Origin: a virus | IMG/VR virus record: IMGVR_UViG_3300034022_000278 | Coordinates: 1-64,000 of that record | DNA length: 64,000 nucleotides | Direction: 5' to 3' (one strand) | Part shown: piece after piece, positions 153 through 29,182 of the stretch | Layout of the letters: every line of letters begins with the position of its first letter | Numbering within the stretch: position 1 is the first letter of the stretch | Position numbers and translations under genes: made by a program | Notes under the pieces: model-generated | Told to the model about the DNA's origin: nothing | The model's database searches: none | Seen by the model: the letters and a program-made list of their open reading frames with translations, nothing else

Positions 153-1778
153 TTATACGTTTCTTGAAAGTGTTGTTTGGAAAGTTTGTACTGCGGTGTA
201 ATAGTTAGCTGCTTCTGTGTCTGTAAGTCCGTCTCCAATAGATGAGAAAGCTTTCTCTCTTGATGAATATAAATCAGGGATTAAATTTCCTGTATTATAA
301 GATGAAATAAAAATATTGTTTGAATTTAAAGAAGTCGAAGGATGTGTATCACTCAGAATTTTAACACCATTTTTAAAAGTATTTTTTACACTTGCTCCCG
401 TTCTATTCCCTAAATGAAAACCAAAACTATTTACATTTGAAGCCTTAATTCCTGCACCATTATCGTTTAATGCTGCAGCTATTAAATCTCCAGAGATTCT
501 TGTTTGCATTAATAAATATGGACTTCCTCCACCTGAACCTGATGAACCTATTTCTACTGAGTTAGATACGATATTTGTTCTTGAATAAACACTTAAATGT
601 GTTGAATTTAAACTTAAAATTGAAGATGGGATTAAAAAAGTATTTGCATAAGCATTAACTCCATTCGGTGTACTTCCCGTACTTGAATGTACCCATCCTC
701 CATTGAAAACCAATCTAAATGCAGCGTCAGTATCCAAAGGATTACGAAGATTATATTTGTGCTGCGTGCTTGTTCCTCCAATAAATGGATAGATTGCTTT
801 CATCTTTGTCCATATTCCGTAGCCTTTTAAGTCAGTTACCAAAGTATTGACTGCATTTGCTTGAGTGACATTTTCTATTACGGCTGCATTCAAGAATGCT
901 TGTGCGTCAGAGTCTGCAACTATTGGCACGCCTACTTGGCGTAATAATTTTGTTTGGAAAGTTTGAACTGCTGTGTAGTAGTTAGCCGCTTCTGTATCTG
1001 TTAAGCCATCTCCAAATGATGAGAATGCACATTCTCTAATGGAATAGTAAATTGGAGAAGTTGCATTATTATAAGCACTAAGTGCATAAGGAACAACATT
1101 ACTATTTACTGATGTACTTGCTATTTCTGAAATTTTAGTTGAATTTTTCCATCCATTTAAAGTACCTACAACGTTTCTATTTGACATAAAAAGACCTAAA
1201 GAATTTGCAGATGCGCCTTGTAAAAAAGAACCGCCATTAAACGCCATATATGTTGTATTCCCATCTCTTGAACGGATATTAGAATTACTTGGGCTGTCAT
1301 CTACACCCATATCAATCATTACAGAACCATTAAAGTCTGTTCTTGAATAGTAACTCATATGCGCATTGTCTTTACTTGTCCAATTACCGCCTTTAAAAAA
1401 GGTATTCGCATAGGCATTTGTTCCATTCGGTTTTGCACCATTTACTGAATGCGTCCATCCACCATTAAATACTAATCTAAATGCACTATCACTATCAACT
1501 GGATTACGAAGATTGAATTTATGTTGAGCTGCCGTTCCTCCAACGAATGGATATAATGCTTTCATTTTAGTCCAAACACCATAGCTTTTAAGAGAAAGAA
1601 CCAAGTTATTTACAGCGTTTTGTTGTACAGGCTCTGTGATCGCAGCATTTGTAATAAACAACTGTGCGTCTGGATCAAATGCTGAGTAGCTCCATATAAG
1701 GGTGCTACCAATGTACACCCTATTTACTTGGGTACTACCAATCTTACAACTTACTATATTAGTTAGCCCTATCTTCAT
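153..1778 (-). CDS. Virion fibre/receptor-binding-like protein with two tandem ~255-aa repeats
   Basis: 541 aa. Two homologous halves (DPDAQLFITNAA...YYTAVQTFQTKL / DSDAQAFLNAA...YYTAVQTFQTTL). N-terminal KIGSTQVNRVYIGSTLIW motif. Lies in the structural block. Confidence 0.55.
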   Translation of the reverse strand: MKIGLTNIVSCKIGSTQVNRVYIGSTLIWSYSAFDPDAQLFITNAAITEPVQQNAVNNLVLSLKSYGVWTKMKALYPFVGGTAAQHKFNLRNPVDSDSAFRLVFNGGWTHSVNGAKPNGTNAYANTFFKGGNWTSKDNAHMSYYSRTDFNGSVMIDMGVDDSPSNSNIRSRDGNTTYMAFNGGSFLQGASANSLGLFMSNRNVVGTLNGWKNSTKISEIASTSVNSNVVPYALSAYNNATSPIYYSIRECAFSSFGDGLTDTEAANYYTAVQTFQTKLLRQVGVPIVADSDAQAFLNAAVIENVTQANAVNTLVTDLKGYGIWTKMKAIYPFIGGTSTQHKYNLRNPLDTDAAFRLVFNGGWVHSSTGSTPNGVNAYANTFLIPSSILSLNSTHLSVYSRTNIVSNSVEIGSSGSGGGSPYLLMQTRISGDLIAAALNDNGAGIKASNVNSFGFHLGNRTGASVKNTFKNGVKILSDTHPSTSLNSNNIFISSYNTGNLIPDLYSSREKAFSSIGDGLTDTEAANYYTAVQTFQTTLSRNV

Positions 1779-2066: not shown

Positions 2067-2363
2067 TTATTTTAATTTAATAAGTTCTACAAATGCATCA
2101 AAATCTGCTTTCTGTTCTACCGTCATGTCTACATAGTCAAGTTCTGTGAATTCTTTAGGAATACTATTTTCAATTCCATAAAACTTCATGATTCTTGGGA
2201 TAGGATTGTAGATATTTACAGACAACAATTCTTGTGTGTCTGAAAATTCATTCATAAAGAAATCATACTCTGCTGTCAAAGGATAAATTTCCTTCTTGTT
2301 TTCTAATTCATCATAAGCATAGATTTCTAAGCCTATAATGTCAATCTTTGTAACTGATTCCAT
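2067..2363 (-). CDS. Hypothetical protein (possible fibre chaperone)
   Basis: 98-aa acidic ORF tightly packed after a beta-helix-like gene. Confidence 0.5.
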   Translation of the reverse strand: MESVTKIDIIGLEIYAYDELENKKEIYPLTAEYDFFMNEFSDTQELLSVNIYNPIPRIMKFYGIENSIPKEFTELDYVDMTVEQKADFDAFVELIKLK

Positions 2364-2376
2364 TTTTGTTTATTTA

Positions 2377-3564
2377 TTATAAGTAAATATTTCCTTGATT
2401 GTCTTCTGTATTCACAATTGCTTGGGTAAGATTTACATTAAATGCTGTACCTCCTTGATATGTATTTCCTCTCATAGAAATTGCTTGAGCAGTTCCTCCA
2501 TTGTTTAAATAAGGAGCAGTAGCATTAACTAATTTAAAAATACAATCTACAATAGTATCGGTAATAGATGCCGAAACACCTTGTATTCCATTACCGTTAA
2601 TATTATTCCAATTACATTCAATTGTTGAATTATATATTAAACTACCTGATGCTCCCAAAATTGCACAACTTGATGCTGATTTAAAAATACAATTATATGA
2701 AATTGATGATGATTTAAGCCAAGCTCCAGAACCAGAAGACGATATGCCCTGACAATTATACATTATTCCAACTGCATATAGACCTAATCCAGATGTAGAT
2801 ATTCCAATACATTGATTTAATTCTGTTCCAGCAGGATTAAATATTCCACTTTTAGTTGTTGATAGACCAGTTGAATTAAAACATTTACCACCACCCATGT
2901 TAATCCCATCTCCAGTAACCGATCTTCCAATAGAATTATATATATTTCCACTATCTATATAAATACCATCTGATCCACCAGTTGATACTGCAATACAATT
3001 GTATGTATTTCCTAGATTTGTATTATTTAAAGATCTTCCAGTTGCTTCTATATAACTGTTATATAAACTTCCTTCATTTCTTACACTTGCAAGTCCACTA
3101 CCAGATGCTGAAATACCCCATAAACTACCTCTATTATAAATACAACTTCCTGCATTTTTAAAAAAAGCACCACTACATTTTATTTGAGAAGATGTAGATT
3201 GAACTTTTAAACACAAATTAGTAATATCTGACATTAAAGAATATCCTATTCTAATAATTTTTATGTTGTAAATTTCACAACTTACTGCAACAGAATTATC
3301 AATAAAAGCATTGTAAAAATCTGTACAATTTAATGTATAAGTATGACCATTTCCATTGATATTTACACCAGTTTTTAATATTATCTCTATTGTTCCAGTC
3401 TCTACAACATCTGCAAACATTTCTATTACTTGTCCACTTACTGCTGCTGCCATAGCAAGGGTTAAGGTAGCATAGTATGTATATACTCCAGACGCATTAG
3501 ATATACCGAAGACTCCTGAAGCAGAGCCTCCACCTGATGATTTTATTTGAATTAGTGTACTCAT
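2377..3564 (-). CDS. Beta-helix-like fibre/spike protein
   Basis: Repeated G/S/N/C-rich units (YNCIAVSTGG, YNSIGRSVTG, FNSTGLSTT, YNCQGISSSG) typical of right-handed beta-helices. Confidence 0.55.
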   Translation of the reverse strand: MSTLIQIKSSGGGSASGVFGISNASGVYTYYATLTLAMAAAVSGQVIEMFADVVETGTIEIILKTGVNINGNGHTYTLNCTDFYNAFIDNSVAVSCEIYNIKIIRIGYSLMSDITNLCLKVQSTSSQIKCSGAFFKNAGSCIYNRGSLWGISASGSGLASVRNEGSLYNSYIEATGRSLNNTNLGNTYNCIAVSTGGSDGIYIDSGNIYNSIGRSVTGDGINMGGGKCFNSTGLSTTKSGIFNPAGTELNQCIGISTSGLGLYAVGIMYNCQGISSSGSGAWLKSSSISYNCIFKSASSCAILGASGSLIYNSTIECNWNNINGNGIQGVSASITDTIVDCIFKLVNATAPYLNNGGTAQAISMRGNTYQGGTAFNVNLTQAIVNTEDNQGNIYL

Positions 3565-27271: not shown

Positions 27272-27529
27272 ATGACAACACATTTAAGAGTATCAACTTA
27301 CTATAATGATGAACATCCTCAAAGGATGATGAAAAGATTAGGTATTACCTATCAGCATTCAACACCACAAAGTATGGGTGACCAATGGTGGTTCTGGAAT
27401 TGTGAAAATGTACCTGACCCTTTACCTGAGCATACTAGCATTTTGGAATGCAACGACCCTATGGAAATGATTGGTTGGGGACTATCAAAAGAGGACGCTG
27501 AAAAAATACGTGATTACACTTTGTTATAA
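27272..27529 (+). CDS. Hypothetical protein
   Basis: 85 aa containing HPQ...LGITYQHSTPQSMGDQWWFWNC. Confidence 0.6.
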   Translation: MTTHLRVSTYYNDEHPQRMMKRLGITYQHSTPQSMGDQWWFWNCENVPDPLPEHTSILECNDPMEMIGWGLSKEDAEKIRDYTLL

Positions 27530-27806
27530 TTAAAATTAATGAACTGTGAGTACCGATAATCCGCCAAATACATAATTATTTTATAGTTTTGGCACAGTAT
27601 AAAATTACCCCGCTAGAAGTAAACAAATAATAAATGCCGCACCTCTTGCGAGTGCTTAATGGATGACTTAACATCTACGGTAAATTGTTAGAATCCATAT
27701 CAAGGTGGAGTTGTTTGTGGAAGGATATAAATAGAAATAATCCCGTCCTAGACGGTGTAAATACTAAACTACTATATTCAGCAACTTGGGCTGACAGGGT
27801 ATGTTA

Positions 27807-27926
27807 TTGTGTTGTTCCCTTGAGAAAGGAGCACGAGCTATAATTCATCAGCTATTGAAGAAGGTACATCGGAATAATGGTGTAGAGATTATATGCTGGT
27901 TTGTAACAACACAGAGGAGTTCTTAA
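27807..27926 (+). ncRNA. Pseudoknotted RNA motif, copy 2
   Basis: TGTGTTGTT/AACAACACA stem, TTCC-CTTGAGAAA-GGAG hairpin and a 3' GAGTTCTTAA. Confidence 0.55.
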
Positions 27927-27935
27927 CCTCAACAT

Positions 27936-28011
27936 AGTGAGGTGGCGTAATGAGGCGAGGTTGCCGAGTCCTATATGGTTGCTTTACGGTTCGAGTCCGC
28001 CCTCACTGCCA
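27936..28011 (+). tRNA. Atypical tRNA-like element (no assignable anticodon)
   Basis: Acceptor AGTGAGG/CCTCACT plus G-CCA. T-loop GGTTCGAGTCC. D and anticodon arms are irregular. Confidence 0.55.
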
Positions 28012-28174
28012 TTAGCCCTCTGCCTAGCGCTGGGTATGGATCGAAGATAGGGATAGCCTCTTGAACGTTAGTTAGAATGTTTCGGCATTCTTTAATCAAT
28101 GCGCACTACGCCTTCCGAATCGTGTGTCGGCACAGTTTGTACGTTCTGGGGATAATACAAAGACGTACATTTTT

Positions 28175-28248
28175 AGTCAGGTGGTGTATTTGGTAAACAC
28201 AACTAGTTTTTAGGAGGATAGCAGGTTCGATTCCTGTCCTGGCTACTA
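28175..28248 (+). tRNA. Atypical tRNA-like element with shortened anticodon arm
   Basis: Acceptor AGTCAGG/CCTGGCT, D stem GTGT/ACAC, T arm GCAGG-TTCGATT-CCTGT. Anticodon arm is only CTA-GTTTT-TAG. Confidence 0.6.
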
Positions 28249-28260
28249 AAATTAAATGTT

Positions 28261-28362
28261 ATGAAAAATGAAAACTGGTGGAATGGTTTCCTAGTGGGAA
28301 TTATTATCGGAGGTGTGATTGGAATAATTATACTTGATTTAGTTCAACGAGGAATACTGTAA
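28261..28362 (+). CDS. 33-aa single-TM microprotein (not in track)
   Basis: MKNENWWNGFLVGIIIGGVIGIIILDLVQRGIL, located between tRNA-like elements. Confidence 0.45.
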   Translation: MKNENWWNGFLVGIIIGGVIGIIILDLVQRGIL

Positions 28363-28369
28363 AGAAAAT

Positions 28370-28526
28370 AGTCAGGTGGCGGAAATATGAGAGACGCAAG
28401 AGGTAGAGTTTGGTCTGTAACAGGGATAACTGGTGAGGACACATCTAACAATTTCACGGAGGGTCTAAAAAAGTGAAAGCGGAAAACCTAAGTTACGTGC
28501 AGGGGCAGTTCCTGTCCTGACTACTA
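28370..28526 (+). ncRNA. tRNA-scaffold RNA with ~90-nt insert replacing the anticodon arm
   Basis: Acceptor AGTCAGG/CCTGACT, D stem GCG/CGC, T stem GCAGG/CCTGT with an altered loop GGCAGTT. Confidence 0.55.
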
Positions 28527-28633
28527 ATTAAATTAAATAACAATGGAATATCTTATAATTGCAATTGTAGTATTTGCAGCATTTATTTTAAGTGAAGTAA
28601 ATCACTAATTATTAACCATCTAAAACAAAAGTT

Positions 28634-29182
28634 ATGAATTATAAATTTAATGAAGAGAAACTATCCTTTGAGGTATATACAAAGAATTATTTAAATGTAA
28701 TTCTAATTGTATTATTTACTGCATTAGTATCAGTTAGTGCTACATTATTAGTACAAACAAAAAAGTTAGATAGAATTAAATATGTAACTGAAGAAACAAG
28801 AATGTTGGTAATTCAACAAGAAAATGCGTTTAGTGAAGAAAAATTGAGAGAATATATTATTGGACTTAATGTAAAGTTTCCTCACATAGTATTTGCTCAA
28901 GCTAAGTTAGAATCAGGTTATTTTAAGTCAACTATTTTTAGAGAAAATAATAACTTATTCGGTATGAAGATAGCAACTAGAAGACCTACTACTAACAAAG
29001 GTGAAAACAGAGGGCATGCTGCATTTGATTCATGGAAAGAGTCTGTTGTAGATTATGCATTCTATCAAGCTAGATACTTAGGGGATATTAGGACAGAGGC
29101 AGAGTATATACAATATCTTAAAGCTAACTATGCTGAAGATCCAAAGTATATAGAAAAAGTAATTAAATTAAGTAGAAAATGA
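28634..29182 (+). CDS. Membrane-anchored glucosaminidase (GH73-like peptidoglycan hydrolase)
   Basis: N-terminal TM segment. Motifs AQAKLESG, NNLFGMK, FDSWKESVVDY, YAEDPKY. Confidence 0.75.
   Translation: MNYKFNEEKLSFEVYTKNYLNVILIVLFTALVSVSATLLVQTKKLDRIKYVTEETRMLVIQQENAFSEEKLREYIIGLNVKFPHIVFAQAKLESGYFKSTIFRENNNLFGMKIATRRPTTNKGENRGHAAFDSWKESVVDYAFYQARYLGDIRTEAEYIQYLKANYAEDPKYIEKVIKLSRK

Follow-up and report, generated by a model that had tools for sequence, protein, structure and literature searches.

Non-decoding tRNA-like RNAs with Variable Cores beside a Phage Glucosaminidase Gene Form a Family Probably Derived from Bacteroidota tRNA-Leu

The window analysed in this work comprises bases 1–64,000 of an 88,042-base phage record of the IMG/VR database (IMGVR_UViG_3300034022_000278), whose completeness is estimated at 67%. 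Head, portal, and terminase genes are located on the minus strand between 12 and 20 kb, and a run of small open reading frames (ORFs) occupies the plus strand from 24 kb onward. No ORF of 60 amino acids (aa) or more exists at positions 27530–28634, and the G+C content peaks in this region (0.43–0.475, vs. approximately 0.3 in most other 200-nucleotide (nt) segments between 24 and 32 kb). Three plus-strand elements resembling transfer RNAs (tRNAs) are placed here, that is, E1 (27936–28011), E2 (28175–28245), and E3 (28370–28523), and they are followed by an endolysin-like gene with a glucosaminidase domain (28634–29182, plus strand; PF01832, E 1.5e-19). Comparison with related sequences confirmed the three copies as apparent non-decoding, tRNA-derived RNAs under selection, and not as decaying pseudogenes.

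A preliminary description of the window had presented the elements as three paralogous scaffolds with common acceptor strands and T arms, and this outline is found in the sequence, with 7-bp acceptor stems. In the case of E1, AGTGAGG (27936–27942) pairs perfectly over 7 bp with CCTCACT (28001–28007), which is followed by G73 (28008) and an encoded CCA (28009–28011). Its T loop is TTCGAGT, the D arm is replaced by an elongated GG-tipped hairpin with a tandem G.A, and the anticodon arm is absent. E2 is a minimal member, with the acceptor AGTCAGG/CCTGGCT (one G-U pair), A73 followed by CTA, the D arm GTGT/ACAC with GG, A14, and T15 in its loop, and the T arm GCAGG-TTCGATT-CCTGT. Its minimum free energy (MFE) fold is a cloverleaf in which the anticodon arm is reduced to CTA-GTTTT-TAG (3 bp and a 5-nt loop). 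E3 is a long member with the acceptor AGTCAGG/CCTGACT, the same T stem as E2 (GCAGG/CCTGT), and A73 followed by CTA. Its T loop is GGCAGTT, the D region GGCGGAAATATGAGAGACGC has no GG in its loop, and the core, which spans about 100 nt from the D region to the T arm, is predicted to form three hairpins. The anticodon regions are irregular, shortened, or replaced, respectively, as had been described, and none of the three elements possesses a usable anticodon arm; the E3 T loop and the A-CTA ends of E2 and E3 had also been read correctly.

The proposal that these are not ordinary decoding tRNAs but tRNA-derived structured RNAs is supported both by the conserved homologs presented below and by ARAGORN, which at default settings makes no call in the window or in the 88-kb genome and finds no canonical anticodon. 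When the thresholds are relaxed to 90–95%, only E1 and E2 are called in the whole 88,042 bases, the former as “Arg(cct)” and the latter as “Lys(ttt)”, and at 80–85% the calls (7 and 34) are noise. The anticodon arm assigned to E1 in this way has two G-U pairs and an A.A mismatch, and that of E2 has a mismatched stem and lacks U33. A canonical 5-bp anticodon stem with a 7-nt loop (U33, purine 37) is present in none of the three. The Rfam tRNA model (RF00005) matches E2 with 39.9 bits against a gathering score of 29, with the anticodon loop collapsed in the alignment, and E1 and E3 are unreported even at E ≤ 10; no other significant match exists at 27500–29000.

Other known RNA classes were considered and rejected. 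An intron-containing tRNA finds no matching Rfam intron family, no consistent exon junction, and neither RtcB nor RNA ligase in the record. Group I introns measure about 200 nt or more, and the cores of the elements and their relatives (median 54 nt) are too short and too varied for them. Transfer-messenger RNA (tmRNA) was found by ARAGORN in neither the window nor the genome, and the Rfam permuted-tmRNA model scores 12 bits against a gathering score of 47.

Relatives of the three elements were sought in two ways. The IMG/VR database was scanned with a 25-nt pattern consisting of the T arm, the 3′ acceptor strand, and the following A-C, which is found in at least 120 stretches, and syntenic loci were retrieved through the glucosaminidase-domain gene (80 from IMG/VR and 80 from metagenomes; fetched loci carry L numbers below). 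Family members were defined by a 7-bp acceptor (consensus AGUCAGG/CCUGACU), U8, a 5-bp T stem, a loop of the UUCGAAU type, and A73-C74. By eye, E3 has the acceptor, the T stem, and A73-C74 of this definition and deviates in the T loop. In total, 223 copies were extracted, which represent 215 unique sequences (212 after removal of three reverse-strand artefacts) from 137 loci. Most loci have a single copy (87), and the remainder have two (33), three (9), four (3), five (4), or eight (1). The elements are 58–258 nt long, with 5th, 50th, and 95th percentiles of 70, 103, and 158 nt.

The frame of the family begins with a T at position -1, followed by AGUCAGG, UG, a D arm (mostly GCGG-AAU(U)GGUA-GACGC), and the variable core. 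After the core come U48, the T arm ACAGG/UUCGAAU/CCUGU, CCUGACU, A73, C, and an A-rich stretch. T at -1 is found in 171 of the 215 sequences, A14A15 in 164, T at position 48 in 169, A73 in 207, and C74 in 210, and the T loop is canonical in 208 of 212.

A covariance model, named R1, was built from 61 short family members. It gives 195 matches at E ≤ 1e-4 in the pattern-fetched loci (870 kb), and in the 88-kb genome it recovers E2 (55.1 bits, E 2.7e-11), E1 (33.7 bits, E 3.6e-6), E3 solely as fragments, and nothing else below E 0.4. In one comparison, matches with the family acceptor scored at least 38 bits and ARAGORN-called tRNAs at most 32 bits, but the ranges overlap in a second comparison, where ARAGORN-called tRNA-Leu reach 45 bits. 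The score of E1 lies inside this range of true tRNAs, and because of this overlap its family membership rests on its subtype relatives.

Selection on the scaffold is indicated by the alignment of the 150 best R1 matches, which is biased towards the consensus. Its 12 scaffold pairs are paired in 99.5% of cases (slid controls 27–44%), and double changes occur at 9 of the 12 (shuffle mean 1.0; reached in 0 of 500). In the samples anchored on internal motifs or on the D arm, the acceptor stems are widely different yet fully paired. The check by covariance model put forward in the preliminary description has therefore found conserved stems around variable cores in phage sequences, with compensatory change and not random decay.

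The cores are much more diverse, and 196 of them with at least 20 nt form just 13 small similarity clusters. They fold somewhat better than their shuffled versions (mean z -0.60, n = 185, p = 4e-12), and compensatory changes are found where relatives can be aligned. For instance, three successive base pairs of a hairpin are different between the cores of L092 and L128, and the closing stem covaries among the cores of L147, L177, and L112. In 15 pairs of elements with alignable cores, the core identity is 77–97%, and in 12 of the 15 both 200-nt flanks are at most 60.5% identical, often below 35%. Since the cores stay alike while the flanks diverge, the whole element, including its core, seems to be the unit that is conserved or moves. 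In the case of the E2 and E3 cores, no alignable relative was found in the 80 IMG/VR and 80 metagenome endolysin loci.

The scaffold is common to E1, E2, and E3, and the paralogy claimed for them stands at this level; beyond the scaffold it does not, as each copy belongs to its own conserved subtype. The subtype of E1 is recognized by GUAAUGAGG and, after a hairpin, CCRARUCC, which a variable stretch separates from GGUUGC. This internal motif, scanned alone in IMG/VR, is present in at least 119 stretches. In the alignment of nine members, 22 pairs are 99.5% paired (slid controls 18–55%), both sides have changed at seven pairs (shuffles 3.0; reached in 2 of 500), and the covariation score is 0.275 against 0.151 for shuffles (0 of 500). 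In our reading, the fold of the subtype includes a helix of three pairs, in which positions 10–12 join the final three bases of GGUUGC and C-G (seven members) or U-A (two) is found at pair 12:89. This helix would surround the long hairpin, with its tandem G.A step and conserved GG tip, and would also hold a second stem that closes the variable insert. At the site of the anticodon arm, the nine homologs have from 5 to about 50 nt and no fixed loop.

The copy at L185:103-175(-) is almost identical to E1, with the acceptor pair 4:69 being C-G there and G-C in E1. Among 76 unique copies of the E1 subtype, parsed with the requirement that 6 or 7 of the 7 acceptor positions be paired, 30 have the acceptor AGUCAGG/CCUGACU and the remainder show about 30 other stems. 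A73 is present in 53 of the 76, and the median length is 79 nt.

The family membership of E3 rests on the identity of its acceptor (7/7), the shared T stem, and a 20-nt identity of its D region to L250:853-972 (= L251:85-204). This homolog has the D region of E3 letter for letter, the T loop GGCAGGU, and an unrelated core. Its acceptor, AGUCAUG/CAUGACU, differs by a double change at pair 6:67 (G-C to U-A), and its T stem, GAAUG/CAUUC, by two double changes. L162 combines the T loop GGCAGUA with a D loop without GG, and L328 has the D region of E3 with a different acceptor and a different non-canonical T loop. Among the 212 copies, a non-canonical T loop co-occurs with a D loop lacking GG ([[192,16],[1,3]], Fisher p = 0.002). 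Because the D region and the GGCAG-type T loop recur with compensatory changes, the “defects” of E3 are a conserved alternative elbow and not the result of decay.

The origin of the scaffold is indicated by host sequences. The same 25-nt pattern gives 20 stretches in a collection of species genomes, all of them on contigs of metagenome-assembled genomes (MAGs) and none in an isolate genome, and a host chromosomal origin of the family found no support in this collection. Most of the MAGs have Bacteroidota titles (Chitinophagia, Sediminibacterium, Flavobacterium, Cytophagales, and Saprospirales). In five MAGs, the weaker R1 matches include host tRNA-Leu; six short regions correspond to four tRNA-Leu, one tRNA-Arg, and one tRNA-Ser. 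The host tRNA-Leu(CAA) has a 19-nt D arm that is the family consensus, the T arm of E2 (GCAGG-TTCGATT-CCTGT), and the trailer A-C-A-A-A as in the family, but a different acceptor (GCCCAGA/TCTGGGC). Since the D and T arms match this tRNA and the acceptor does not, the scaffold is probably the body of a Bacteroidota tRNA-Leu to which a new acceptor stem has been fitted. Mimicry of a particular host acceptor found no support among the genomes searched: AGTCAGG followed by CCTGACTA at a spacing of 55–85 nt is found in 12 of 401 Bacteroidota genomes, at 15 places, none of them tRNA-like, and the reversed control matched at least as many of the 401.

In order to sample independently of the acceptor, IMG/VR was scanned for the exact 18-nt D arm. 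From the 130 unique sequences obtained, 78 have a family-type acceptor, and 23 of the other 52 are tRNA-Leu according to ARAGORN. Most of the remaining sequences are non-decoding derivatives with other, fully paired acceptors.

Gene finders treat the family inconsistently. At default settings, ARAGORN makes 339 calls in all fetched loci, of which 41 bear the family acceptor and the other 298 are the ordinary tRNA set of phages. The 41 are assigned to Cys, Glu, Ser, Lys, Pro, Val, Leu, Tyr, Ile, or Gly, or are undetermined, and many have A34, as forced fits would give. The closest canonical-looking member among those examined, L125:13031-13101(-), reads by eye as a canonical tRNA-Lys(UUU), and a few family members of this kind may still decode. 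The Rfam tRNA model matches elements in L009 and L011 that have the acceptor of E2/E3, normal D and T arms, and 23–62 extra nt at the site of the anticodon arm.

Other architectures are also encountered. Extra sequence lies within the D loop, between GGCGGAAU and GGUAGACGC, in L194:3737-3917, L160:4212-4391, L152, and L106:484-642, and a second T-arm-like hairpin with a UUCGA loop is located inside some cores (L115:3721-3808, L174, L181, and L106). In a blastn search of a typical member against 50,697 GenBank phage records, 105 records matched, none over 80% or more of the query, and the matches are T arms of ordinary tRNAs. In Tenacibaculum phage pT24 (L223, record 192032–192477), two annotated 79-nt “tRNA-Undet” genes combine normal D and T arms and a normal acceptor of another sequence with an extended hairpin at the site of the anticodon arm; this pair seems to represent the same phenomenon in a cultured Bacteroidota phage. 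The crAss-like phage cr4_1 (L222, record about 67841–67940) contains an unannotated tRNA-like element whose T arm has the loop UUCGAAU. Its 3′ strand is CUUACU-A-CAAG, a candidate for the 5′ strand is situated about 85 nt before it, and a loop of 9 nt is found at the site of the anticodon loop. This element suggests that human-gut crAss-like phages may hold cousins of the family.

Two further conserved modules, which are not tRNA-like, are found on the plus strand next to the elements. Module X (27807–27935) ends exactly at the 5′ end of E1, and its frame exists in at least 15 loci. The 5′ part of the frame (a 7-nt strand and the hairpin CCUU-GAGA-AAGG) and the 3′ part (the complementary 7-nt strand and a GAGGA/UCCUC hairpin) are invariant, and the middle varies over approximately 25–90 nt. 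As both halves of the frame are invariant, covariation provides no test of its structure. Copies are located at L011:6012-6119, L104:2010-2103, L165:4579-4668, L142:381-480, L133:330-460, L145:12228-12356, and L108:3341-3434(-), and in L011, L145, and L165 the match runs precisely up to the start of a family element. Module X matches no Rfam family. Upstream of it, the stretch 27687–27808 is 90–91% identical over about 120 nt in L112 (about 2205–2320, minus strand) and L250:635-758, is also present in L132, and overlaps a 52-aa ORF with a TTG start (27685–27843).

Module Y (28014–28174) is a conserved, RNA-like spacer between E1 and E2. In comparison with L214 (about 1540–1690, minus strand), its first 41 nt are 97.6% identical and its last 61 nt 80% identical, and the middle is unrelated. 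The order in L214 is an E1-type element, Y, and the next tRNA-like element; L218 and L115 have partial matches. The module ends with a hairpin and five U directly before E2, and its single-sequence fold is no better than those of shuffles (z +0.36).

Two short ORFs were translated by eye downstream of the elements, one of 33 aa with a hydrophobic core (28261–28362, plus strand), which starts 15 nt past A73 of E2, and a hydrophobic one of 21 aa (28543–28608, plus strand), which starts 19 nt past A73 of E3. Both lie among the tRNA-like elements shortly before the glucosaminidase gene and may encode membrane peptides belonging to a lysis cassette. Close packing with ORFs is general in the family, as the preceding stop is within 40 nt in 44% of cases (16% at random positions), and the next ORF start within 40 nt in 48% (29% at random).

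Upstream of the endolysin gene, sequence turnover is rapid. Relatives with 72–79% identity bear other tRNA-like combinations, and L040–L042 have 16 tRNAs beside the same gene. In the metagenome contig L247, the endolysin is 96% identical from residue 10, and the DNA identity starts inside the gene (window about 28675). As everything upstream in L247 is unrelated, a recombination breakpoint is placed at the 5′ end of the endolysin gene, beside the RNA island. A further tRNA-like element, about 150 nt long, has a T arm and the acceptor GGCUCUA/UAGAGCC and is located just upstream of the endolysin homolog in L250 (about 1060–1215), L251 (about 290–450), and L255 (about 235–400); A-CCA is encoded in L250 and L251, and a separate conserved module precedes the element. 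In L029 and L034 (3277–3732), a 456-nt tmRNA called by ARAGORN (tag ...ILGVAA) is found directly upstream of the endolysin homolog, with the 5′ motif of Module X at 3105–3127; three tmRNA calls with other tags occur elsewhere in the fetched loci.

Regarding expression, a scan for sigma-70 promoters at 27300–28800 gave 7 sites against 5.8 in shuffled sequence, with a consensus that may not apply to Bacteroidota, and a terminator scan of the same interval gave none on the plus strand. No gene for a CCA-adding enzyme, for RtcB, for an RNA ligase, or for a peptidyl-tRNA hydrolase is present in the 88-kb record (67% complete by estimate), and therefore any processing of the elements would fall to the host.

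The explanation that we hold with about even confidence is that a chassis derived from host tRNA-Leu releases stable small RNAs with exchangeable cores and, at the same time, cuts the surrounding transcript. According to it, E1–E3 would be transcribed within a polycistronic plus-strand transcript, and their tRNA-like top half would be read as a precursor tRNA. RNase P would cut between U-1 and A+1 and RNase Z after A73, and CCA would then be added. The product would be a nuclease-resistant small RNA, whose core domain would act as exchangeable functional cargo, and the same cuts would free the modules X and Y and the mRNAs of the small ORFs. The D and T arms, U8, in most cases U48, and A73 with a C-A-rich trailer would come from the chassis, and the acceptor would be specific to the phage.

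The preliminary description had offered three functional ideas, that is, carriers from which host RNase P and RNase Z excise neighboring or inserted RNAs, decoys for anticodon nucleases or sensors of uncharged tRNA, and a family of tRNA-derived non-coding RNAs. The carrier or processing idea probably fits best because of the U at -1, the A73-C trailer, which resembles that of host tRNA genes, and the non-tRNA modules abutting the elements. Excision by RNase P and RNase Z is favored as the constant parts are those that pre-tRNA enzymes read and the varying parts are those that they ignore. The core is favored as cargo as whole elements are conserved in unrelated flanks and the cores covary.

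Several observations weigh against this explanation. Each of the processing steps, as well as the stability of the product and any activity of the core, is something that we infer. The near-uniformity of the T arm and the 3′ acceptor is partly built into the main scan, which was anchored on these parts, and both are more varied in the samples obtained without such anchoring. E2 has a core of only about 20 nt and is thus nearly empty of cargo. Most cores have no detectable relative, as would also be expected from weak constraint at such divergence, and no shared core motif was found, the pentamer GTGAG occurring in 14 of 190 cores. The single-sequence folds of E1–E3 are weak (z from -0.06 to -0.67). 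An antisense search of the window cores and of X and Y against both strands of the 88-kb genome gave nothing longer than 12 nt. Finally, no recurrent RNA-related partner gene was found near the elements, the best clusters being terminase and DUF932, in 16 of 140 loci.

A more specific scenario is considered tentatively, as possible and clearly short of probable. Freshwater Bacteroidota phages may maintain, and trade among themselves, a large repertoire of small RNAs “displayed” on the tRNA-Leu chassis, which would become abundant and stable through host maturation and perhaps charging. The cores would be aptamer-like and serve in conflicts between phage and host or between phages, and the constant ends would act as recombination arms through which cassettes are swapped.

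Apart from carriage of a functional core, the elements could be pure processing marks, a form of tRNA punctuation in which the top half guides RNase P and RNase Z to their cuts in a polycistronic early transcript, between small ORFs and non-coding modules. The core would then be a spacer, tolerated provided that it folds clear of the cuts. We consider this rather unlikely, although much of the anatomy suits it, since the conserved parts are the acceptor/T minihelix, the D/T elbow, U-1, and the trailer, all of which RNase P and RNase Z are known to recognize. The wedging of the elements between ORFs, with the ORF starts 15 and 19 nt after E2 and E3, the nearly coreless E2, and the lack of detectable relatives for most cores agree with it as well. 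On the contrary, alignable cores are 77–97% identical amid diverged flanks and show compensatory changes, the cores have outgrown the ancestral arms (median 54 nt, in elements that reach about 190 nt and more), and the D arm specific to tRNA-Leu is kept even though the two enzymes need no particular D-arm sequence. Alternatively, the RNAs might, after CCA addition, be charged or at least bound by the host leucyl-tRNA synthetase (LeuRS). They could then donate activated leucine, or serve as a sink or sensor-jammer with LeuRS, EF-Tu, or leucine as the target. In a study of the Escherichia coli enzyme (PMC9976931), the reported identity set consists of A73, A14/A15, G18G19, and U48, together with a canonical T loop that allows the D/T tertiary pairs; tRNA-Leu is reported to be charged without its anticodon and variable arms, and G73 is listed as an antideterminant. 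The family keeps these features (A73 in 207/215, A14A15 in 164/215, G18G19, U48 in 169/215, and a canonical T loop in 208/212), its T stem is that of host tRNA-Leu, and charging is possible for many members. However, two of the three copies in the window fail, as E1 has G73 and E3 lacks both the GG of the D loop and the canonical T loop; A73 is found in only 53 of 76 copies of the E1 subtype, the identity rules come from E. coli and not from Bacteroidota, and a charged non-decoding RNA has no evident use. Such mimicry of a LeuRS substrate is considered improbable.

Binding by other factors would make the elements decoys or sponges for tRNA-directed defences, such as anticodon nucleases and toxins that modify tRNA ends, or for other tRNA-binding proteins. 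Non-decoding tRNA mimics in several copies per phage would suit this role, and tRNA-Lys is a classic target of anticodon nucleases, with the loop of E2 keeping UUUU where L125:13031-13101(-) reads as tRNA-Lys(UUU). The chance of this is nevertheless slim, for the anticodon loop that anticodon nucleases recognize is missing or unrelated in the elements, a diverse structured core would be unnecessary, and no context of defence or anti-defence genes was seen near them. The occurrence of the same element, with its core, in unrelated flanks, and the relative with a 96% identical endolysin and an entirely different upstream region, could instead reflect selfish cassettes that spread by recombination through their constant ends or by homing endonucleases, with little benefit to the phage. 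HNH and T5orf172 genes do recur nearby (7 and 9 of 140 loci, respectively), but target-site duplications and transposases are lacking, and compensatory changes in the helices indicate selection on the RNA fold, which a parasite at the DNA level does not need. We give this explanation little credence, while mobility and usefulness of the elements are not mutually exclusive. Least probable by far are decaying pseudogenes left from a tRNA cluster, an explanation already contradicted: real arrays of 16 tRNAs do exist beside the endolysin gene in L040–L042, and E2 does resemble a tRNA with a small deletion in its anticodon arm, but the odd features recur with compensatory changes. The architecture of E1 is found in at least 119 stretches, the D region and GGCAG-type T loop of E3 recur in L250/L251 and L162, and the scaffold stems are 99.5% paired.

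With respect to known systems, the family is a tRNA-like non-coding RNA that is set apart from tmRNA, YrlA, the tRNA scaffold, and tRNA punctuation. No family matching E1–E3 and their relatives was found in Rfam 15, and the literature searched contained no description of a family on a tRNA-Leu chassis. Like the family, tmRNA has a tRNA-like acceptor and T arm that enclose a large insert, and ARAGORN calls tmRNAs at the same site beside the endolysin in relatives (5 calls of 4 tag-peptide types in the fetched loci). Unlike tmRNA, the elements of the window have neither a tag reading frame nor a tmRNA match, and a full D stem is present. Their pair 3:70 is U-A or U-G and not G3-U70, the alanine mark of tmRNA. 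In mitochondrial tRNA punctuation, in the TMER units of MHV68, and in the 3′ETS-leuZ small RNA, tRNA folds act as RNase P and RNase Z signals that free their neighbors. The family differs from these three in its constant tRNA-Leu chassis with exchangeable internal domains, and the organisms and polymerases are also different.

The rationale of the laboratory tRNA scaffold is that the cell processes and stabilizes the chimera. As in the family, the anticodon arm of this engineered scaffold is swapped for an arbitrary RNA (PMC3753655). The scaffold is man-made, whereas in the family such a design would be a product of nature that builds on tRNA-Leu, occurs in multiple copies, and has diversified from phage to phage, with a presumed benefit in stability. 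Some YrlA RNAs are phage-encoded; in these Y RNA-like molecules, pairing of the RNA ends yields the Ro-binding stem, and the acceptor-like arm terminates in a loop. In the family, on the contrary, it is the 5′ and 3′ ends that form the acceptor stem, and Rfam gives no Y-RNA match. What YrlA has in common with it is being a non-coding RNA with a tRNA-like module (PMC4201824).

The nearest phage precedent is probably provided by RNAC (species 1 RNA) and RNAD of T4, small stable RNAs from the T4 tRNA region for which PMC3014915 gives the role as unknown. RNAC is likewise phage-encoded in a tRNA region, and the rnaC gene (139 nt) has at its 3′ side the canonical T arm CCGGG-UUCGAAU-CCCGG, with an MFE fold in which a short stem closes the ends around a structured middle. 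In Rfam, rnaC is not matched by the tRNA model, and its best match is tRNA-Sec (17.5 bits, E 0.76). RNAC and RNAD differ from the family in being single copies, without a constant frame or a tRNA-Leu D arm, and in belonging to phages of another host phylum. A survey of IMG/VR from 2023 reported five tRNA-like candidate RNAs in viral contigs with inconsistent ARAGORN overlap, in the available part of its text (PMC10690425). The family resembles these candidates in that ARAGORN calls just some of its members, and some of the candidates may be family subtypes, although that part mentions for them neither a common scaffold nor derivation from tRNA-Leu nor a variable core.

Genes of this kind, rejected by gene finders or labeled “undetermined”, are usually dismissed as pseudogenes, and here they form a coherent family that appears to be under selection. 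Among IMG/VR sequences with the same 18-nt D arm, the family outnumbers genuine tRNA-Leu (78 vs. 23 of 130). It is a target for small-RNA sequencing in phages of Flavobacterium and Chitinophaga, and its covariance model would improve phage annotation. If the scaffold alone is functional, it would be the first tRNA-punctuation system of phages to our knowledge, and if the cores are displayed as suggested, the family would be nature's version of the laboratory tRNA scaffold and would constitute viral RNA effectors of a new class. If the combination of chassis and cargo is true, the family would offer hundreds of natural structured RNA domains and a natural design for RNA expression in Bacteroidota, and it would represent a general route by which phages obtain stable small RNAs from polycistronic transcripts through the tRNA enzymes of their hosts.

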